A stretch of 32,000 nucleotides of DNA, taken from Nanoarchaeum equitans Kin4-M. GTDB taxonomy: Archaea > Nanobdellota > Nanobdellia > Nanobdellales > Nanoarchaeaceae. Positions 883 to 30,583 of the stretch are shown here, one piece after another. Within the stretch, counting starts at the first letter, position 1. Each line of letters begins with the position of its first letter. The stretch lies in assembly GCA_000008085.1 (NCBI GenBank), contig AE017199.1, positions 1-32,000 of the forward strand. Direction: 5' to 3'. The position numbers were made by a program, and so were the translations under genes. The notes beneath the pieces were generated by a model. That model was not told the origin of the DNA. It ran no database searches and worked only from the letters and a program-made list of their open reading frames with translations.

Positions 883-2691
883 ATGAAAAAGCCCCAACCC
901 TATAAAGATGAAGAGATATATTCTATTTTAGAAGAGCCCGTAAAACAATGGTTTAAAGAGAAATACAAAACATTCACTCCCCCACAAAGGTATGCAATAA
1001 TGGAAATACATAAAAGGAACAATGTTTTAATTTCTTCCCCCACAGGTTCGGGAAAAACGTTAGCAGCGTTTTTAGCTATAATAAATGAATTAATAAAGTT
1101 ATCTCATAAAGGAAAATTAGAAAATAGAGTTTATGCCATTTATGTTTCTCCATTAAGAAGTTTAAATAACGATGTAAAGAAAAACTTAGAAACTCCATTA
1201 AAAGAAATAAAAGAAAAAGCGAAAGAGCTTAACTATTATATTGGAGATATTAGAATCGCTGTAAGAACTAGTGATACAAAAGAATCGGAAAAAGCAAAAA
1301 TGCTTAAGCAACCTCCACATATTTTGATTACCACTCCTGAATCTTTAGCTATAATATTATCAACAAAAAAATTTAGAGAACATATAAAGAAAGTGGAATT
1401 TGTTGTTGTGGATGAAATACATGCTTTAGCAGAGTCTAAAAGGGGAACACATTTAGCTTTAAGCTTAGAGAGATTAAACTATCTAACCAATTTCGTTAGA
1501 ATTGGGCTTTCAGCAACAATCCATCCATTAGAGGAAGTGGCAAAATTTTTGTTTGGTTATGAAAATGGGAAACCAAGGGAAGGCTATATAATAGATGTTT
1601 CTTTCGAAAAACCTATAGAAATACAAGTATATAGCCCTGTGGACGATATAATATATAGCTCTCAAGAAGAGTTAATGCGGAACCTATACAAATTTATTGG
1701 AGAGCAATTGAAAAAATATAGAACTATATTAATATTTACCAATACCAGACATGGTGCAGAAAGTGTGGCATACCATTTGAAAAAAGCTTTTCCCGATTTA
1801 GAAAAATATATTGCGGTGCACCATTCCTCTTTGTCTAGAGAAGAAAGATTAGAGATAGAAGAAAAACTAAAAAGGGGCGAATTAAGAATAGTATGCACTT
1901 CTACTTCTTTAGAACTAGGAATAGATATAGGTACAATAGATTTAGTTATACAAATAGGTTCTCCTAAGAGTGTTAATAGGGCATTACAAAGAATTGGTAG
2001 GGCTGGCCATAGATTAGATGAAAAGAGCAAAGGTATTCTAATTGGCTTAGATAGAGACGAACTATTGGAAAACACAATAATAAAATATAGCGCCGACAAT
2101 AGAAGGTTAGACAGAATTCATATTCCAACTAATGCTTTAGATGTATTGGCCCAACATATAGTAGGGATGGGCTTAGAGAAAGAATGGGATCTAAAGGAAG
2201 CATACAATTTAATAAGAAATGCTTATCCCTATAGAAATCTATCGTGGGACGATTATATTAATACTATAAAATATTTGGCTGGAGAGTATACAAAATTAGA
2301 ACATAAAAAAGTATATGCTAAAATAATTTTGAGGGACAATAAATTTAAAACTAAGGGTAGTGTAAGAGCTATTTATTTTATGAATATAGGCACTATCCCC
2401 GAAGAAACAAAAATAGCGGTATATACTTTAGATAATAAAAGAATAGGTTATGTAGAGGAAGAATTTGTAGAAAAACTAGTAAAAGGGGACATATTCGTTT
2501 TGGCAGGAAAAACTTATGAATTTCTATATAGTAAGGGCAATAAAATATATGTTAGACCTGTAAAAGGGGTAAACCCCACAATACCCCATTGGTTTTCTGA
2601 GATGTTACCATTAAGTTATGATTTAGCGATAGAAATACAAAAATTTAGAGAGGAAATAGCCAAAAAATTAGAGAGAGAACCTTTGGACTAA
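883..2691 (+). CDS. lhr: Lhr-type (large helicase-related) superfamily-2 DEAD/DEAH helicase; only the N-terminal ~600 aa portion is present
   Basis: Lhr-like N-terminus (PVKQWFKEKYKTFTPPQRYAI). Walker A SPTGSGKT, motif II VVVDEIHAL, motif III LSATI, motif VI QRIGRAGH. It ends at 602 aa, inside the region where the Lhr winged-helix/domain 4 continues. Confidence 0.85.
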   Translation: MKKPQPYKDEEIYSILEEPVKQWFKEKYKTFTPPQRYAIMEIHKRNNVLISSPTGSGKTLAAFLAIINELIKLSHKGKLENRVYAIYVSPLRSLNNDVKKNLETPLKEIKEKAKELNYYIGDIRIAVRTSDTKESEKAKMLKQPPHILITTPESLAIILSTKKFREHIKKVEFVVVDEIHALAESKRGTHLALSLERLNYLTNFVRIGLSATIHPLEEVAKFLFGYENGKPREGYIIDVSFEKPIEIQVYSPVDDIIYSSQEELMRNLYKFIGEQLKKYRTILIFTNTRHGAESVAYHLKKAFPDLEKYIAVHHSSLSREERLEIEEKLKRGELRIVCTSTSLELGIDIGTIDLVIQIGSPKSVNRALQRIGRAGHRLDEKSKGILIGLDRDELLENTIIKYSADNRRLDRIHIPTNALDVLAQHIVGMGLEKEWDLKEAYNLIRNAYPYRNLSWDDYINTIKYLAGEYTKLEHKKVYAKIILRDNKFKTKGSVRAIYFMNIGTIPEETKIAVYTLDNKRIGYVEEEFVEKLVKGDIFVLAGKTYEFLYSKGNKIYVRPVKGVNPTIPHWFSEMLPLSYDLAIEIQKFREEIAKKLEREPLD

Positions 2692-3189
2692 ACTTTCTAA
2701 GATTTTGCTTTTTATTATTAGTTGGCCATCCTTTTCTTCAATAACATCTTTATAACCAAGGTTTTGAGCCAATTTTTCTAAAAATTCTTTTCTATCCAAT
2801 TTCTTTATATCCTCTATAATAATTTTTATTTTTTTCCCTGCCAATGGATGGTTAAAATCCACTAAAACTCTATCACTATTAACAGTTAAAACTATTCCGG
2901 TTTTGCCATCCATATTAACTACTAACCCAGGAATTGGTATTAATCTATTTTCTCTAAAAACTTTTGCAGGCACTATCACTATATTTTTCGGATTTCTTTT
3001 TCCGAAAGGATTATTATTTTCATCGAATTCTAATTCTATTTTTTCTCCTTCTTTGCCAATCAAATTATTCTCAATTTCTTTATTATATAACCCAGAGCCC
3101 AGCTTTGTTAAAATCTTATCCTCTAACAAAAGCTTTTCTCCTTCGTAAATTTTTATTTTCCCCTCTATATAATCGCCCTCTTTTAACAT
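2668..3189 (-). CDS. FKBP-type peptidyl-prolyl cis-trans isomerase (short archaeal/SlyD-like type)
   Basis: Signature VLVDFNHPLAGKKIKI (FKBP DFNHPLAGK motif) plus an insert-in-flap-like middle region. Convergent with lhr, 24-nt 3' overlap. Confidence 0.85.
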   Translation of the reverse strand: MLKEGDYIEGKIKIYEGEKLLLEDKILTKLGSGLYNKEIENNLIGKEGEKIELEFDENNNPFGKRNPKNIVIVPAKVFRENRLIPIPGLVVNMDGKTGIVLTVNSDRVLVDFNHPLAGKKIKIIIEDIKKLDRKEFLEKLAQNLGYKDVIEEKDGQLIIKSKILESLVQRFSL

Positions 3190-3203
3190 CGCCTTACTAA
3201 TAA

Positions 3204-3216
3204 AAAATTTTTAAAA
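3204..3216 (+). promoter_or_regulatory. BRE/TATA-like box (AAAA-T-TTTTAAAA) for the tRNA 3'-half gene
   Basis: Same element and spacing as upstream of tRNA-Ile and tRNA-Phe. Applying the tRNA-Ile spacing (last TATA nt at -20) places +1 on G3236. That G is preceded by CTCT, exactly as in tRNA-Ile. Confidence 0.5.
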
Positions 3217-3235
3217 GCTTATAATATATTACTCT

Positions 3236-3289
3236 GCGGCGGCCAGGGGGGAAACCCCCAGGTCCCCGGTTCAAATCCGGGCCCCGCGT
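3236..3289 (+). tRNA. tRNA 3'-half gene: GC-rich leader plus tRNA positions 38-73, with no 5' half adjacent
   Basis: Parse: GCGGCGGCCAGG GGGG AA|A CCCCC(39-43) AGGTC(44-48) CCCGG-TTCAAAT-CCGGG(T arm) CCCCGCG(66-72) T. No D arm, anticodon or 5' acceptor strand lies upstream. The AGGTC variable loop matches both complete tRNAs in the window, and the TTCAAAT T-loop matches tRNA-Phe. Confidence 0.7.
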
Positions 3290-3748
3290 CTATATGTCTA
3301 CAATAAATTCTATAACATATTTCGCCCTCCCTTCCCTTTTAATATCTAAACCATGCCATGTTACAGCTTTTACTTCTTTTTTAAAATTATGCTTCTCCAT
3401 AGAATAAGGCTCCCCCATAGCATATCCTTTTAAATACCATTGCTTTTTGCCATTCTTTATTCTTCTCAAATTTTTTATTTTAAAAAATCCAAAAGCTATC
3501 TTTTTTATATAGAATTGGGCCAATATATTAGATAACCAATCATATAAAACTTCGCTAGCGTAATCGCCATAGCTTTCTATTTCTATTTTTTCGCTATCGC
3601 TTTCTACTTTATCTACATCATATATTAGATGTAACATCCCAGCTGCGGCAGAGTAAAATGCATGTTTCAAATTCCTACCATATGCTTTTATCATTACATC
3701 AGCGGTATGGTCTAAATATTCAAAACAATAATCCCTAATGCAAATCAT
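3290..3748 (-). CDS. Archease (activator/chaperone of the RtcB tRNA ligase and of tRNA-modifying enzymes)
   Basis: N-terminal FEYLDHTADVMIKAYG is the archease signature (F-E-x-x-D-HTAD). About 150 aa, with C-terminal KAVTWHGL. Its stop codon abuts the last nt of the tRNA half. Confidence 0.85.
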   Translation of the reverse strand: MICIRDYCFEYLDHTADVMIKAYGRNLKHAFYSAAAGMLHLIYDVDKVESDSEKIEIESYGDYASEVLYDWLSNILAQFYIKKIAFGFFKIKNLRRIKNGKKQWYLKGYAMGEPYSMEKHNFKKEVKAVTWHGLDIKREGRAKYVIEFIVDI

Positions 3749-5758: not shown

Positions 5759-7000
5759 GTGAAAGTCTATTTCGAAAGCTATGGTTGCACACTAAATAAG
5801 AGAGACACTTTATATATGCAAGCACAAATAGAAAATACTACAAACAATTTAGAAGAAGCGGATGTTGTTGTTATAAATAGTTGTATAGTAAAACAACCAA
5901 CCGAAACTAAAATATTGTATAGAATAAACCAACTAAAGAAGATGGGCAAAAAAATTGTTTTAACTGGTTGTATGGTTAGTGAACCATATTTAAAATACAA
6001 AGAATTACAGGACATATCTTTAGTAAACATATACAACCAAGATAGAATTAAAGAAGCAATAGAGAGAACATACAAAGGAGAAAGAGTTTTGTTTTTAGAA
6101 AAGAAAAAAATATACAAAGAATTTGCTAGGCCTTTATCTAAAGCTAGGGCAATAATACAAATCCAAGAAGGTTGTTTATGGAGATGCACTTATTGCGGTA
6201 CAAAGCTAGCGAGATCGATGTTTTATTCTTATCCACCAAAGTTAATAAAAAGAGAAATAGAGGAAAAACTCAAACAAGGAATAAAAATATTTTATTTAAC
6301 GGGCCCTGATACTGCCACTTATGGAAAAGACATTAACTATAGCTTGGCGGATTTGCTAAAAGATTTAATAGAAATAGAAGGCGATTTTTATATAAGAGTG
6401 GGTATGGCTAACCCAACATTTTTCTTAGAGCAAATAGATGAACTAATAGATGTGTTTAAATCAAACAAAATATTTAAGTTCTTCCATTTACCAGTACAAA
6501 GTGGGTCTAATAAAGTGCTAAAAGATATGAATAGGCCCTATACTATAGAGGAATATAAAGAGCTTATTTATAAGCTAAGAAAACATTTTCCTTTAGCTAC
6601 TTACGTTACAGATATAATTGTAGGCTATCCAACTGAAACGGAAGAAGATTTTGAACAAACATTAGAATTGGTTAGGGAAATAAAATTTGATGGCATAAAC
6701 ATAAGCAGATTTTGGAGGAGGCCCGGAACAATAGCTTGGAATTTGAAACAATTGGATCCAGAAATAGTTACTAATAGAGTAAAAAGGTTGAAAGAAGTAT
6801 TCTTACAAGGAGCGTATGAAAGAAATAAGCTATGGCTAAACTGGGAAGGCGAAGCTATAATTGAAGAAAAAGGCAAAAACAATACATGGATTGCCAAAAA
6901 CGAAATGTATAAACAAATAATAGTGAAAGGCAATTATGAAGAAGGGCAAAAAATTAAGGTAAAAATAAAAAAAGCTAGAGCTATTGATTTAATCGCCTAG
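5759..7000 (+). CDS. MiaB/MtaB-family radical-SAM tRNA methylthiotransferase (archaeal CDKAL1/e-MtaB type)
   Basis: GTG start. N-terminal UPF0004 domain (VYFESYGCTLNxxD...NSC...TGC), radical-SAM EGCLWRCTYCG, and a C-terminal TRAM-like domain (GQKIKVKIKKA). Confidence 0.85.
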   Translation: MKVYFESYGCTLNKRDTLYMQAQIENTTNNLEEADVVVINSCIVKQPTETKILYRINQLKKMGKKIVLTGCMVSEPYLKYKELQDISLVNIYNQDRIKEAIERTYKGERVLFLEKKKIYKEFARPLSKARAIIQIQEGCLWRCTYCGTKLARSMFYSYPPKLIKREIEEKLKQGIKIFYLTGPDTATYGKDINYSLADLLKDLIEIEGDFYIRVGMANPTFFLEQIDELIDVFKSNKIFKFFHLPVQSGSNKVLKDMNRPYTIEEYKELIYKLRKHFPLATYVTDIIVGYPTETEEDFEQTLELVREIKFDGINISRFWRRPGTIAWNLKQLDPEIVTNRVKRLKEVFLQGAYERNKLWLNWEGEAIIEEKGKNNTWIAKNEMYKQIIVKGNYEEGQKIKVKIKKARAIDLIA

Positions 7001-7074
7001 TGGGCCCGGCGGGATTCGAACCCGCGACCTCCCGGTTATCAGCCGGGCGCTCTGCCAGGCTGAGCCACGGGCCC
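7001..7074 (-). tRNA. tRNA-Ile (anticodon GAU), 74 nt, no encoded CCA
   Basis: The reverse complement folds as GGGCCCG TG GCTC AGCCTGGCA GAGC G CCCGG CTGATAA CCGGG AGGTC GCGGG TTCGAAT CCCGC CGGGCCC A. Its 3' end abuts the MtaB-like stop codon (6998-7000). Confidence 0.95.
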
Positions 7075-15156: not shown

Positions 15157-16158
15157 ATGAAAACTATATACATACTTAGTATAGGCAAACTTTATAGGGG
15201 TAAGAATGGCCTTTACTTTATTAACAAAGACAAAAAGAAAAGTCCCATACCTTTGGAAAGCATAAAAGAGATATTTATCCTAAACAAAGTTTCTGTAACC
15301 TATAATGCTTTAAAACTATTAGCAGATAGAAATATTCCAATACATTTCTTTTATGAAAATACTAAAAAAGGAATATCCTATTATTTGGGTTCTTTCTTAC
15401 CGAGGCAAAAGACAAAATCTGGTTTAGTTTTAGTAAAACAAGTTGAGGCATATAAAGATATAGAAAAAAGAACAGAAATAGCATTAGAGATAGTTGATGC
15501 TATTAGATATAATTGTATAAAGGTTTTAGAAAAATACCACATTGATGAAGTAAAAGAGTTAAGAAAAATAGATGTTTGGAAAATGTTTGAAGAAAGTTTA
15601 AATGACTGGAAAGATGCCATAAATATAATAAGGGGTATAGAGAGTAATATATGGAATCTATTTTACCAAGGTTTAGATAAAATATTAAAACTATATAAAT
15701 TAGAGAGAAGAACTAGGAGGCCTCCTAAAAATGAGGCTAATACTATTGTAAGTTTTGCAAACACTTTATTATATGGAGTAACTTTAACAGAAATATACAA
15801 AACCCATTTGGATCCAACTATATCTTTTTTGCATGAATTAAGAGATACAAGGTATTCTTTAGCTTTAGATTTGTCTGAAAATTTCAAACCAATAATTACT
15901 TTTAGAATTTTGATTTGGCTAGTAAACCAAGGAATTATAAAGGATACACATTTTGTTAAAGGTTTAAATGGAGTTTTGTTAAATGAGCAAGGCAAAAAAT
16001 TAGTAATCAAAGAATTTAATAAAAGATTGGACGAAACTATTAAATTGAAAAGCGGGTTAAAGAGAAGCATGAGATGGTATATAAAAGCACAAGCCTATAA
16101 TTTAGAAAGGTTTTTGTTAGATGGTAGAAAATTCAAAGCTTTTAGGTTAATTTATTAA
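15157..16158 (+). CDS. cas1: Cas1 integrase
   Basis: RRTRRPPKNEANTIVSFANTLLYGV...LDPTISFLHELRDTRYSLALDLSENFKPII matches the Cas1 catalytic region (RPPxDxxNalLsfgY...gflH...sLalDlxEefrP). Confidence 0.95.
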   Translation: MKTIYILSIGKLYRGKNGLYFINKDKKKSPIPLESIKEIFILNKVSVTYNALKLLADRNIPIHFFYENTKKGISYYLGSFLPRQKTKSGLVLVKQVEAYKDIEKRTEIALEIVDAIRYNCIKVLEKYHIDEVKELRKIDVWKMFEESLNDWKDAINIIRGIESNIWNLFYQGLDKILKLYKLERRTRRPPKNEANTIVSFANTLLYGVTLTEIYKTHLDPTISFLHELRDTRYSLALDLSENFKPIITFRILIWLVNQGIIKDTHFVKGLNGVLLNEQGKKLVIKEFNKRLDETIKLKSGLKRSMRWYIKAQAYNLERFLLDGRKFKAFRLIY

Positions 16159-29269: not shown

Positions 29270-29341
29270 TGGGGCGGGGGGGATTTGAACCCCCGACCTC
29301 CCGGTCTTCAGCCGGGCGCTCTCCCGCTGAGCTACCGCCCC
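29270..29341 (-). tRNA. tRNA-Phe (anticodon GAA), 72 nt, no encoded CCA
   Basis: The reverse complement folds as GGGGCGG TA GCTC AGCGGGA GAGC G CCCGG CTGAAGA CCGGG AGGTC GGGGG TTCAAAT CCCCC CCGCCCC A. Confidence 0.95.
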
Positions 29342-29431: not shown

Positions 29432-30583
29432 ATGATGAATGTAATAGACCGTATGAGAAAAATTCCCTTGCCTAAGAAGTTTGTCTATAAAATTGAAGAA
29501 AAAGCAAAAAACTATATAATTAAAGAAGGTCCCAAACTTGCTCCAAAATTGGCATCGGTATTGACAATTTTAGCCGGAGCAGGTTTGGCAATGGCCAAAG
29601 AATATGAAATTGACCTTAGCTCTGTAAAAGAGGGCAATATCCAATACAAAAATATAAAAGTAAAACTTAATGATACAGATATTTCATTAAATGGGAATGA
29701 TATGGTTGACTATGTTTATGAGAAAGATGGTTTCAAATATATTGATTATTTAAATAAAGTAGTAAGTGACACTTCGGGCGACTGGTATGTAAATAACGCT
29801 TTCTTTACTTCAAGTGTCAATAACCCATTAAGATACAGCGATTTAATCGAAAACGACCAAATAAAATTGTCTATCCCTACTAAAGAAAAAGAAATCAATA
29901 AATTATTAGATGAAACCGATACATTAAATAATTTGGGAGGGGCTTACCAAATAACCGATGGTACTTTAGTTATACCAAAATTTGAATATAATGGCAAAAC
30001 TCATAAGGTGGAAATCCAGTTAGATGGTGTAAATAATGCGAAATTAAATATAAAATTCAAAGTATTACCCATAGTAATAGATGAAAAGGGTCTTAAATTC
30101 AATGATAGTGAGTCCTTATCTAATTACTATTTTGACAAAAATAAACTTATAGATTACTTAACCAACATAGCAAGCAAGATGAAGGATACAAATGGCCATC
30201 TAATAGTAAAAGATGGGGCTGTATTTGTAGATTACGATAAAGACAATATCTGGGATGCTGGAATAGAACCTGGCACATATATTGATGATACCGATTTGGG
30301 AAAAATTCTAACAGGTAGAGCAATATATGCTATTGGTAACATTTCTATGGACAGTTTACCACAATATATAAAGGTAGATGGGAGGAATGTGGATTCGTCG
30401 AATCCCATCTATACAAATATAAGTAGGGCATTACAGAATGGCATATCATTCGAAAAACTGCTGTATCTTGTAGATGTTAGCGAAGTGGATGCTGATTACT
30501 CTAAAAAATTCGCTATTCCTGCACCAGTGCTTGGAGTAATGGGATTGGTACCATTATTTAAAAGAAAAAGGAAAAATGCTTAG
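29432..30583 (+). CDS. Secreted/surface protein with an N-terminal signal-like helix and a C-terminal hydrophobic anchor plus basic tail
   Basis: N-terminus KLASVLTILAGAGLAMAKE. C-terminus PAPVLGVMGLVPLFKRKRKNA*. The body is Asn/Asp/Tyr-rich. Confidence 0.6.
   Translation: MMNVIDRMRKIPLPKKFVYKIEEKAKNYIIKEGPKLAPKLASVLTILAGAGLAMAKEYEIDLSSVKEGNIQYKNIKVKLNDTDISLNGNDMVDYVYEKDGFKYIDYLNKVVSDTSGDWYVNNAFFTSSVNNPLRYSDLIENDQIKLSIPTKEKEINKLLDETDTLNNLGGAYQITDGTLVIPKFEYNGKTHKVEIQLDGVNNAKLNIKFKVLPIVIDEKGLKFNDSESLSNYYFDKNKLIDYLTNIASKMKDTNGHLIVKDGAVFVDYDKDNIWDAGIEPGTYIDDTDLGKILTGRAIYAIGNISMDSLPQYIKVDGRNVDSSNPIYTNISRALQNGISFEKLLYLVDVSEVDADYSKKFAIPAPVLGVMGLVPLFKRKRKNA

Follow-up and report, generated by a model that had tools for sequence, protein, structure and literature searches.

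The window analysed here, the whole stretch of 32,000 nucleotides, is the opening 32 kb of the Nanoarchaeum equitans Kin4-M genome, with window and genome coordinates being identical; four proteins encoded in it are exact matches to NEQ002, NEQ003, NEQ004 and NEQ008 of this strain. Two minus-strand open reading frames, at 2668–3189 and 3290–3748, flank a gap of 100 nucleotides, and on the plus strand this gap holds the 3' half of a tRNA. The features of the locus are as follows.

2668–3189, minus strand: NEQ002, an FKBP-type isomerase (Pfam match)
3202–3216, plus strand: promoter, a purine-rich BRE-like run at 3202–3207 followed by box A, TTTAAA, at 3210–3215
3204–3216, plus strand: AT-rich box, AAAATTTTTAAAA
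3236–3289, plus strand: tRNA 3' half gene, a GC-rich block of 54 nt
G3236–G3251, plus strand: leader including the GC extension, GCGGCGGCCAGGGGGG
3236–3237, plus strand: unpaired 5' extension GC, with the transcription start at G3236
3238–3251, plus strand: trans-annealing leader, GGCGGCCAGGGGGG, lost during maturation
3252–3254, plus strand: AAA bulge of 3 nt, with the 3' splice site between A3253 and A3254; A3254 is tRNA position 38
3254–3289, plus strand: mature exon, tRNA-iMet positions 38–73, 36 nt; CCA is not encoded
3255–3259, plus strand: 3' strand of the anticodon stem, CCCCC, positions 39–43
3260–3264, plus strand: variable loop, AGGTC
3265–3281, plus strand: T arm, CCCGG-TTCAAAT-CCGGG
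3282–3288, plus strand: 3' strand of the acceptor stem, CCCCGCG, positions 66–72
3289, plus strand: U73 (T3289)
3290–3748, minus strand: NEQ004, an archease, PF01951 (Pfam match)

Read in order, the 54-nt block runs G3236-CGGCGGCCAGGGGGG-AAA-CCCCC-AGGTC-CCCGG-TTCAAAT-CCGGG-CCCCGCG-T3289, and every sequence element that an earlier note on this DNA had listed is found in its place. The block thus encodes, without interruption, the part of a tRNA that runs from the split site to position 73, T arm and acceptor 3' strand included, with no adjoining 5' portion. An alternative acceptor register, in which positions 66–72 read CCCGCGT and allow an A1:U72 pair, was dropped, as it breaks the T stem and leaves C:C at 49:65. 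The G+C content at 3236–3289 is 76% versus 29.8% across the window, and at least 70% G+C over 54 nt is reached at three places only in the 32 kb, namely the 3' half, tRNA-Ile and tRNA-Phe; the GC-rich feature is well beyond chance. Four independent assembly contigs carrying NEQ004 all have the element and its flanks in identical form. ARAGORN and Rfam call tRNA-Ile (7000–7074, minus strand) and tRNA-Phe (29270–29341, minus strand) as the only tRNAs of the window and return nothing tRNA-like at 3236–3289 with E-values up to 10, nor do they make a tRNA call on the 3' half when it is scanned alone. The earlier note had read a stand-alone tRNA 3' half from position 38 here, and the missing tRNA call, the flanking protein genes and a published mature start at 3254 all agree with it. 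The absence of a call would also fit a dead tRNA fragment, that is, the 3' end of a tRNA duplicated by integration or the relic of a disrupted gene, without function, and partial 3' tRNA copies are, as a matter of general knowledge, common at integration sites. There is, however, neither an integrase nor a repeat context among the surrounding open reading frames and Pfam domains, and the promoter and partner described below argue further against such a fragment.

Upstream regions were compared after alignment on the 5' ends of the RNAs. Box A, TTTAAA at 3210–3215, occupies −26 to −21 from G3236, exactly the place that TTTAAA takes in front of tRNA-Ile and tRNA-Phe, with a purine-rich run just 5' of the box in all three; CTCT before the start is common to the 3' half and tRNA-Ile, as the earlier note had pointed out. 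The 5' half described below carries TATAAA at −26 to −21. TTTAAA occurs in the window at a frequency of 1.9 per kb. [quoted passage not shown] The same count implies that many N. equitans mRNAs are leaderless, with the spacing seen in the leaderless tRNAs. A promoter 26–27 nt upstream of every N. equitans tRNA has been reported (PMC10100707), and the 3' half has its own at this fixed distance of leaderless N. equitans tRNA genes; a promoter at the exact genome-wide spacing is not what a dead fragment would be expected to keep. By RNA-seq, the precursor of the 3' tRNA-Met half reaches two nucleotides (GC) past the complementary stretch (PMC3491384), which places the transcript start at G3236. 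Both results bear out the earlier proposal of an own promoter and a start at this G.

The partner lies 3.2 kb past the end of the window, at genome positions 35248–35301 (15817–15870 of assembly contig L009). This contig, which was retrieved via the protein encoded at 29432–30580 of the window, is identical to the window at 2500 of 2500 bases over the compared overlap, and the 5' half has the same sequence in a second contig. It reads ACGCGGGGTGGGGCAGCCTGGAGTGCCCGGGGGGCTCATA|TCCCCCTGGCCGCC, then TTTTTTT, or in short form ACGCGGGG...GGGGGCTCATA|TCCCCCTGGCCGCC-TTTTTTT, and carries A-1, positions 1–37 and the anticodon CAU. A trailer complementary to the leader directly after a tRNA 5' half ending at position 37, as the earlier note had asked to be looked for, is present at this site, and the complement of the leader has no copy within the window, in line with the claim that no 5' portion is found upstream and that the partner is encoded outside. 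The T7 run directly after the trailer (L009 15871–15916 region, genome ~35302–35347) looks like an archaeal terminator, and about 17 nt past it the 3' end of a tRNA gene on the opposite strand (tggacccgccgggattcgaacccgg...) is interrupted by the end of L009. [quoted passage not shown] Searches outside the genome were less productive. The partner pattern GGGGGCTCATAN{0,10}CCTGGCCGCC gave four chance matches in genome_contigs, a collection without N. equitans, all in GC-rich coding DNA with no tRNA, and a stricter pattern gave none in metagenome_contigs, likewise without N. equitans; as both patterns match the true 5' half exactly, the empty scans of these collections are uninformative on the N. 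equitans genome. The 3' half string had no match in viral_contigs, which for want of N. equitans in that collection says as little, and a full-text literature search with the sequence strings returned unrelated primer matches only.

Joining positions −1 to 37 with 3254–3289 gives 76 nt, which ARAGORN calls as tRNA-Met(cat) with all four stems perfect, whereas it makes no call on either half alone. The separately encoded partner thus supplies the acceptor and anticodon strands that complete the cloverleaf. The joined acceptor stem has 8 bp, A-1:U73 and C1:G72 included, with CCCCGCG-U complementing the 5' strand A-CGCGGGG; the anticodon loop is CUCAUAA and the anticodon stem GGGGG:CCCCC (G27–31:C39–43). 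[quoted passage not shown] The earlier note had flagged G72 and U73 as unusual; they are indeed there, and the oddity arises because G72 pairs with C1 and U73 with the extra A-1. N. equitans is without RNase P and its C1 tRNAs carry an extra purine at −1 (PMC3491384, PMC10100707): transcripts must begin with a purine and no RNase P is there, hence the additional base. [quoted passage not shown]

With the partner in hand, the identity of the tRNA can be read. From the GGGG of the leader, which could in principle pair with a C32-U33-Y34-Y35 loop, the earlier note had leaned towards Glu or Lys, while also remarking on initiator-like features; the latter observation was the correct one, the partner's CAU identifying an initiator tRNA-Met. 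That the block is the 3' half of another split tRNA, Glu or Lys, now has a negligible probability, as the only complementary partner carries CAU, CCCCGCG-U matches the iMet 5' strand A-CGCGGGG, and the published 3' halves of tRNA-Glu and tRNA-Lys lie at 487064 and 380370, with tRNA-Lys split at 30/31 (PMC3218864).

The GC-rich leader 3238–3251 is complementary to the trailer of the matching half, UCCCCCUGGCCGCC, with which it forms 13 Watson-Crick pairs and one G-U pair (G3251-U). The trailer ends in ...CCGCC followed by T7 and holds no complement to G3236-C3237. Pairing of the leader with a partner trailer was thus rightly foreseen, but the trailer sequence predicted for it, ...CCTGGCCGCCGC, was not, the real one being UCCCCCUGGCCGCC with a U-run, and pairing does not extend from G3236 as had been supposed, since it covers 3238–3251 and leaves G3236-C3237 unpaired. 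When the two halves are co-folded, all four tRNA stems (acceptor, D, anticodon and T) are predicted at 37 and 70 °C together with a 13-bp leader:trailer helix, and at 90 °C a 14-bp leader:trailer helix and the acceptor stem persist. At 37 °C the co-fold has −79.3 kcal/mol versus −25.2 and −31.1 kcal/mol for the separate halves, and a hand-drawn cloverleaf with a continuous 14-bp helix and a 6 × 3 internal loop has −74.3 kcal/mol. A 14-bp complement between leader and trailer, with matching acceptor and anticodon strands at a second locus, is unexpected of a dead fragment, against which a published transcript, a reported mature tRNA spliced at 37/38 and the lack of a redundant tRNA with the same anticodon also speak (literature); we consider the chance that the block is such a fragment to be minute.

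The co-folds also bear on the geometry of the junction. A 4-bp central helix of GGGG with positions 32–35 had been proposed earlier and does not hold: against the real loop, CUCAUA, GGGG forms three pairs only (G:C, G-U and G:C) and a G-A mismatch, and the conformer in which it is paired to 32–35 has −62.9 kcal/mol, 11 kcal/mol less stable than the continuous helix. A canonical bulge-helix-bulge (BHB) at the junction was rejected on this ground, as it is less stable than the continuous leader:trailer helix. The hBHBh' 3-4-3 arrangement, with two 3-nt bulges on opposite strands and a 4-bp helix between them, is accordingly absent from the predicted minimum-energy structure. In the hand-drawn cloverleaf model an unpaired AAA separates the leader:trailer helix from the anticodon stem, placing the 5' splice site at the edge of a 6-nt unpaired stretch and the 3' splice site inside the 3-nt AAA bulge. 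As modelled, the junction is a relaxed BHB, or bulge-helix-loop, which fits the published description of such substrates, motifs of this kind having been described for the split-tRNA substrates of N. equitans. The earlier suggestion to co-fold the halves yielded the leader:trailer helix and, in place of the canonical BHB, a predicted relaxed bulge-helix-loop.

The block folds on itself as well, and it is bounded exactly by the NEQ004 stop codon on one side and the NEQ002 promoter on the other, so that one may ask whether it is a GC-rich terminator or stability hairpin for the minus-strand genes NEQ004 and NEQ002, its likeness to a tRNA being coincidental. The self-fold of the 54-mer has −31.1 kcal/mol at 37 °C but is almost lost at 90 °C (−4.5 kcal/mol). 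It is general knowledge that archaea terminate transcription at oligo-T tracts and not at hairpins, which weighs against this explanation. A hairpin moreover leaves the exact T arm, the 72/75 homology to tRNA-Met (see below) and the complement in trans unexplained, and it is at odds with published plus-strand transcript data (PMC3491384); we give it scarcely any credence.

The published record agrees with the tRNA-iMet 3' half at every point, and no result obtained here contradicts this identification. The 3' half of the split tRNA-iMet of N. equitans is reportedly described already in the 2005 papers of Randau et al. (Nature) and of Randau, Pearson and Söll (FEBS Lett). Table 1 of Chan, Cozen and Lowe (2011) gives the iMet CAU 3' half with a start at 3254(+), a precursor of ~52 nt and 36 mature nucleotides, and the 5' half at 35249(+) with a precursor of ~53 nt and 39 mature nucleotides, ligation being at 37/38 (PMC3218864). 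The published mature coordinates of the 3' half are identical to A3254–T3289, exactly 36 nt, and its ~52-nt precursor implies a start at 3238; cleavage before A38, as proposed earlier, follows the published start at 3254 and ligation at 37/38 (PMC3218864). All 11 tRNA halves, the 3' Met half among them, were detected by RNA-seq (Randau 2012, PMC3491384), and PMC3491384 cites Randau 2005 for the mature spliced tRNAs. According to the literature, with PMC3491384 among the sources, no redundant tRNA shares an anticodon with the split tRNAs, and six trans-joined tRNAs are known in N. equitans: iMet, His, Lys, Gln and two Glu (Podar et al. 2013, PMC3655853). It is, in our judgement, practically certain that 3236–3289(+) encodes the 3' half of the initiator tRNA-Met(CAU) that N. 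equitans Kin4-M makes by trans-splicing. The N. equitans split-tRNA architecture invoked by the earlier note applies literally, the window being N. equitans DNA. The 3' half is already known and its novelty is nil; all that this analysis adds is its derivation anew from the sequence, energies for the co-folded junction and the box A common to the divergent NEQ002.

On this basis a maturation pathway can be drawn up, for which this analysis supplies the sequence anatomy, the partner and its complementarity, the cloverleaf of the joined exons and the spacing of the promoter, and the literature the transcript ends, the expression and the cleaving enzyme. Box A at 3210–3215 would direct initiation at G3236 to give a 5'-triphosphate precursor at least ~54 nt long. 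No T-run terminator follows the 3' half, and the lack of a T-run after U73 would therefore leave ragged 3' ends, with 3' half transcripts running into the convergent NEQ004. Leader 3238–3251 would then form 14 bp with the trailer of the 5' half, whereupon the acceptor stem (8 bp with A-1:U73 counted) and the anticodon stem (G27–31:C39–43) could pair. The heteromeric splicing endonuclease NEQ205/NEQ261 would cut after A37 and before A38 at the relaxed bulge-helix-bulge junction, the conformer of which, as seen by this enzyme, we infer; an RNA ligase would subsequently join the exons, after which the 3' end would be trimmed and CCA added.

Two features tie the 3' half to its neighbors. TTTAAA at 3210–3215 is palindromic and lies exactly 26 nt from both G3236(+) and A3189(−), where the NEQ002 start codon begins, so that one TATA box may fire both ways, towards the 3' half and towards NEQ002. 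Divergent pairs with 5' ends exactly 47 nt apart and a single palindromic TTTAAA 26 nt from each start are seen three times.

A3189(−), NEQ002 ATG, and G3236(+), tRNA half: box at 3210–3215
8728(−) and 8775(+), open reading frame starts: common TTTAAA
11984(−) and 12031(+), open reading frame starts: common TTTAAA

The three 47-nt pairs suggest bidirectional promoters and leaderless mRNAs. On the other side, the NEQ004 stop codon (3290–3292) directly adjoins U73 in convergent orientation, and NEQ004 is an archease, a cofactor of the RtcB tRNA ligase. Reads of the 3' Met half have been found to run into the adjacent gene of opposite orientation (PMC3491384), which at this locus is NEQ004, and an antisense overlap of the 3' half transcript with NEQ004 is possible. 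One could go further and regard the 3' half gene as more than a passive exon, with the shared box and the antisense run-in to NEQ004 coupling the supply of trans-splicing substrate to expression of the ligation machinery; we hold this to be improbable.

Split tRNA genes are a landmark in that they show how the machinery for intron splicing can put together an essential tRNA from two RNAs transcribed independently. They also bear on the debated question whether tRNAs originated from half-sized genes, a significance that belongs to the 2005 discovery and its follow-ups. The value of the present case is that of a positive control: a tRNA half missed by both ARAGORN and Rfam was yet recognised by reading the sequence alone.

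In comparison with known systems, the locus shows no difference from the published 3' half of the N. equitans split tRNA-iMet, with organism, strand, coordinates, split site, partner location and precursor size all the same. The other split tRNAs of N. equitans (His, Gln, Lys, Glu-UUC and Glu-CUC) likewise have separate promoters and GC-rich leader/trailer complements of 12–14 nt, and are likewise processed by NEQ205/NEQ261 at relaxed BHB motifs. They differ in the split site, which is 30/31 in Lys and 32/33 in Gln (PMC3218864) versus 37/38 in iMet, and in Glu one 3' half is common to two 5' halves; a −1 base extending the acceptor stem is found among the split tRNAs in iMet and His only. The relative Nst1 has ordinary full-length genes for the tRNAs that are trans-joined in N. 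equitans (PMC3655853).

Beyond N. equitans, the 23-nt T-arm and acceptor string CCCGGTTCAAATCCGGGCCCCGC was found at 75 metagenome loci. Of the loci, 72 prove to be tRNA-Met(CAT) genes, among which 46 are contiguous and 26 contain an intron; the N. equitans locus itself was not retrieved from this metagenome collection. Most of these matches end in CCCCGC-TA (A1:U72, A73), and none has the G72-U73 end of N. equitans. Two matches deserve mention in their own right. In Ga0209123_1002102, on the minus strand and ~130 nt upstream of the match at 5953–5975, a T-arm and acceptor piece reads …CACACA-CCCGGTTCAAATCCGGGCCCCGC-CTCCA, with no tRNA 5' part within 400 nt and no ARAGORN call. Before it come AAAGTTTAAAAGG, which resembles a promoter, and the leader CCTGACCCCGCA; two copies of the complement of this leader, TGCGGGGTCAGG, lie ~100–130 nt upstream. 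The piece may belong to a split or permuted tRNA of an uncultured thermophile. In JREQ01004717.1, on the minus strand upstream of the match at 5909–5931, a tRNA-Met(CAT)-like gene for which ARAGORN makes no call has a long intervening sequence after ...GGCTCATA, with C/D-box-like motifs (TGATGA ... CTGA) occurring twice; this recalls the C/D box sRNA reported in the intron of the N. equitans elongator tRNA-Met (PMC3491384).

Introns in the 26 intron-bearing tRNA-Met(CAT) genes that share the T-arm and acceptor string lie mostly at or near 37/38. Cis-spliced archaeal initiator genes with a 37/38 intron have the same exon boundary as N. equitans iMet and near-identical exons; their exons, however, are contiguous and on one transcript, with A1:U72 and A73, whereas those of N. 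equitans iMet lie 32 kb apart, each with its own promoter, and form A-1:U73 and C1:G72. The split tRNAs of Caldivirga maquilingensis and the Desulfurococcales follow the same sequence of trans-annealing, BHB cleavage and ligation (Fujishima 2009; Chan 2011, PMC3218864), but they are different tRNAs (Gly, Ala, Glu, Asp and Lys), several have the canonical hBHBh' motif, and some of their halves lie close together in the genome (PMC3218864).
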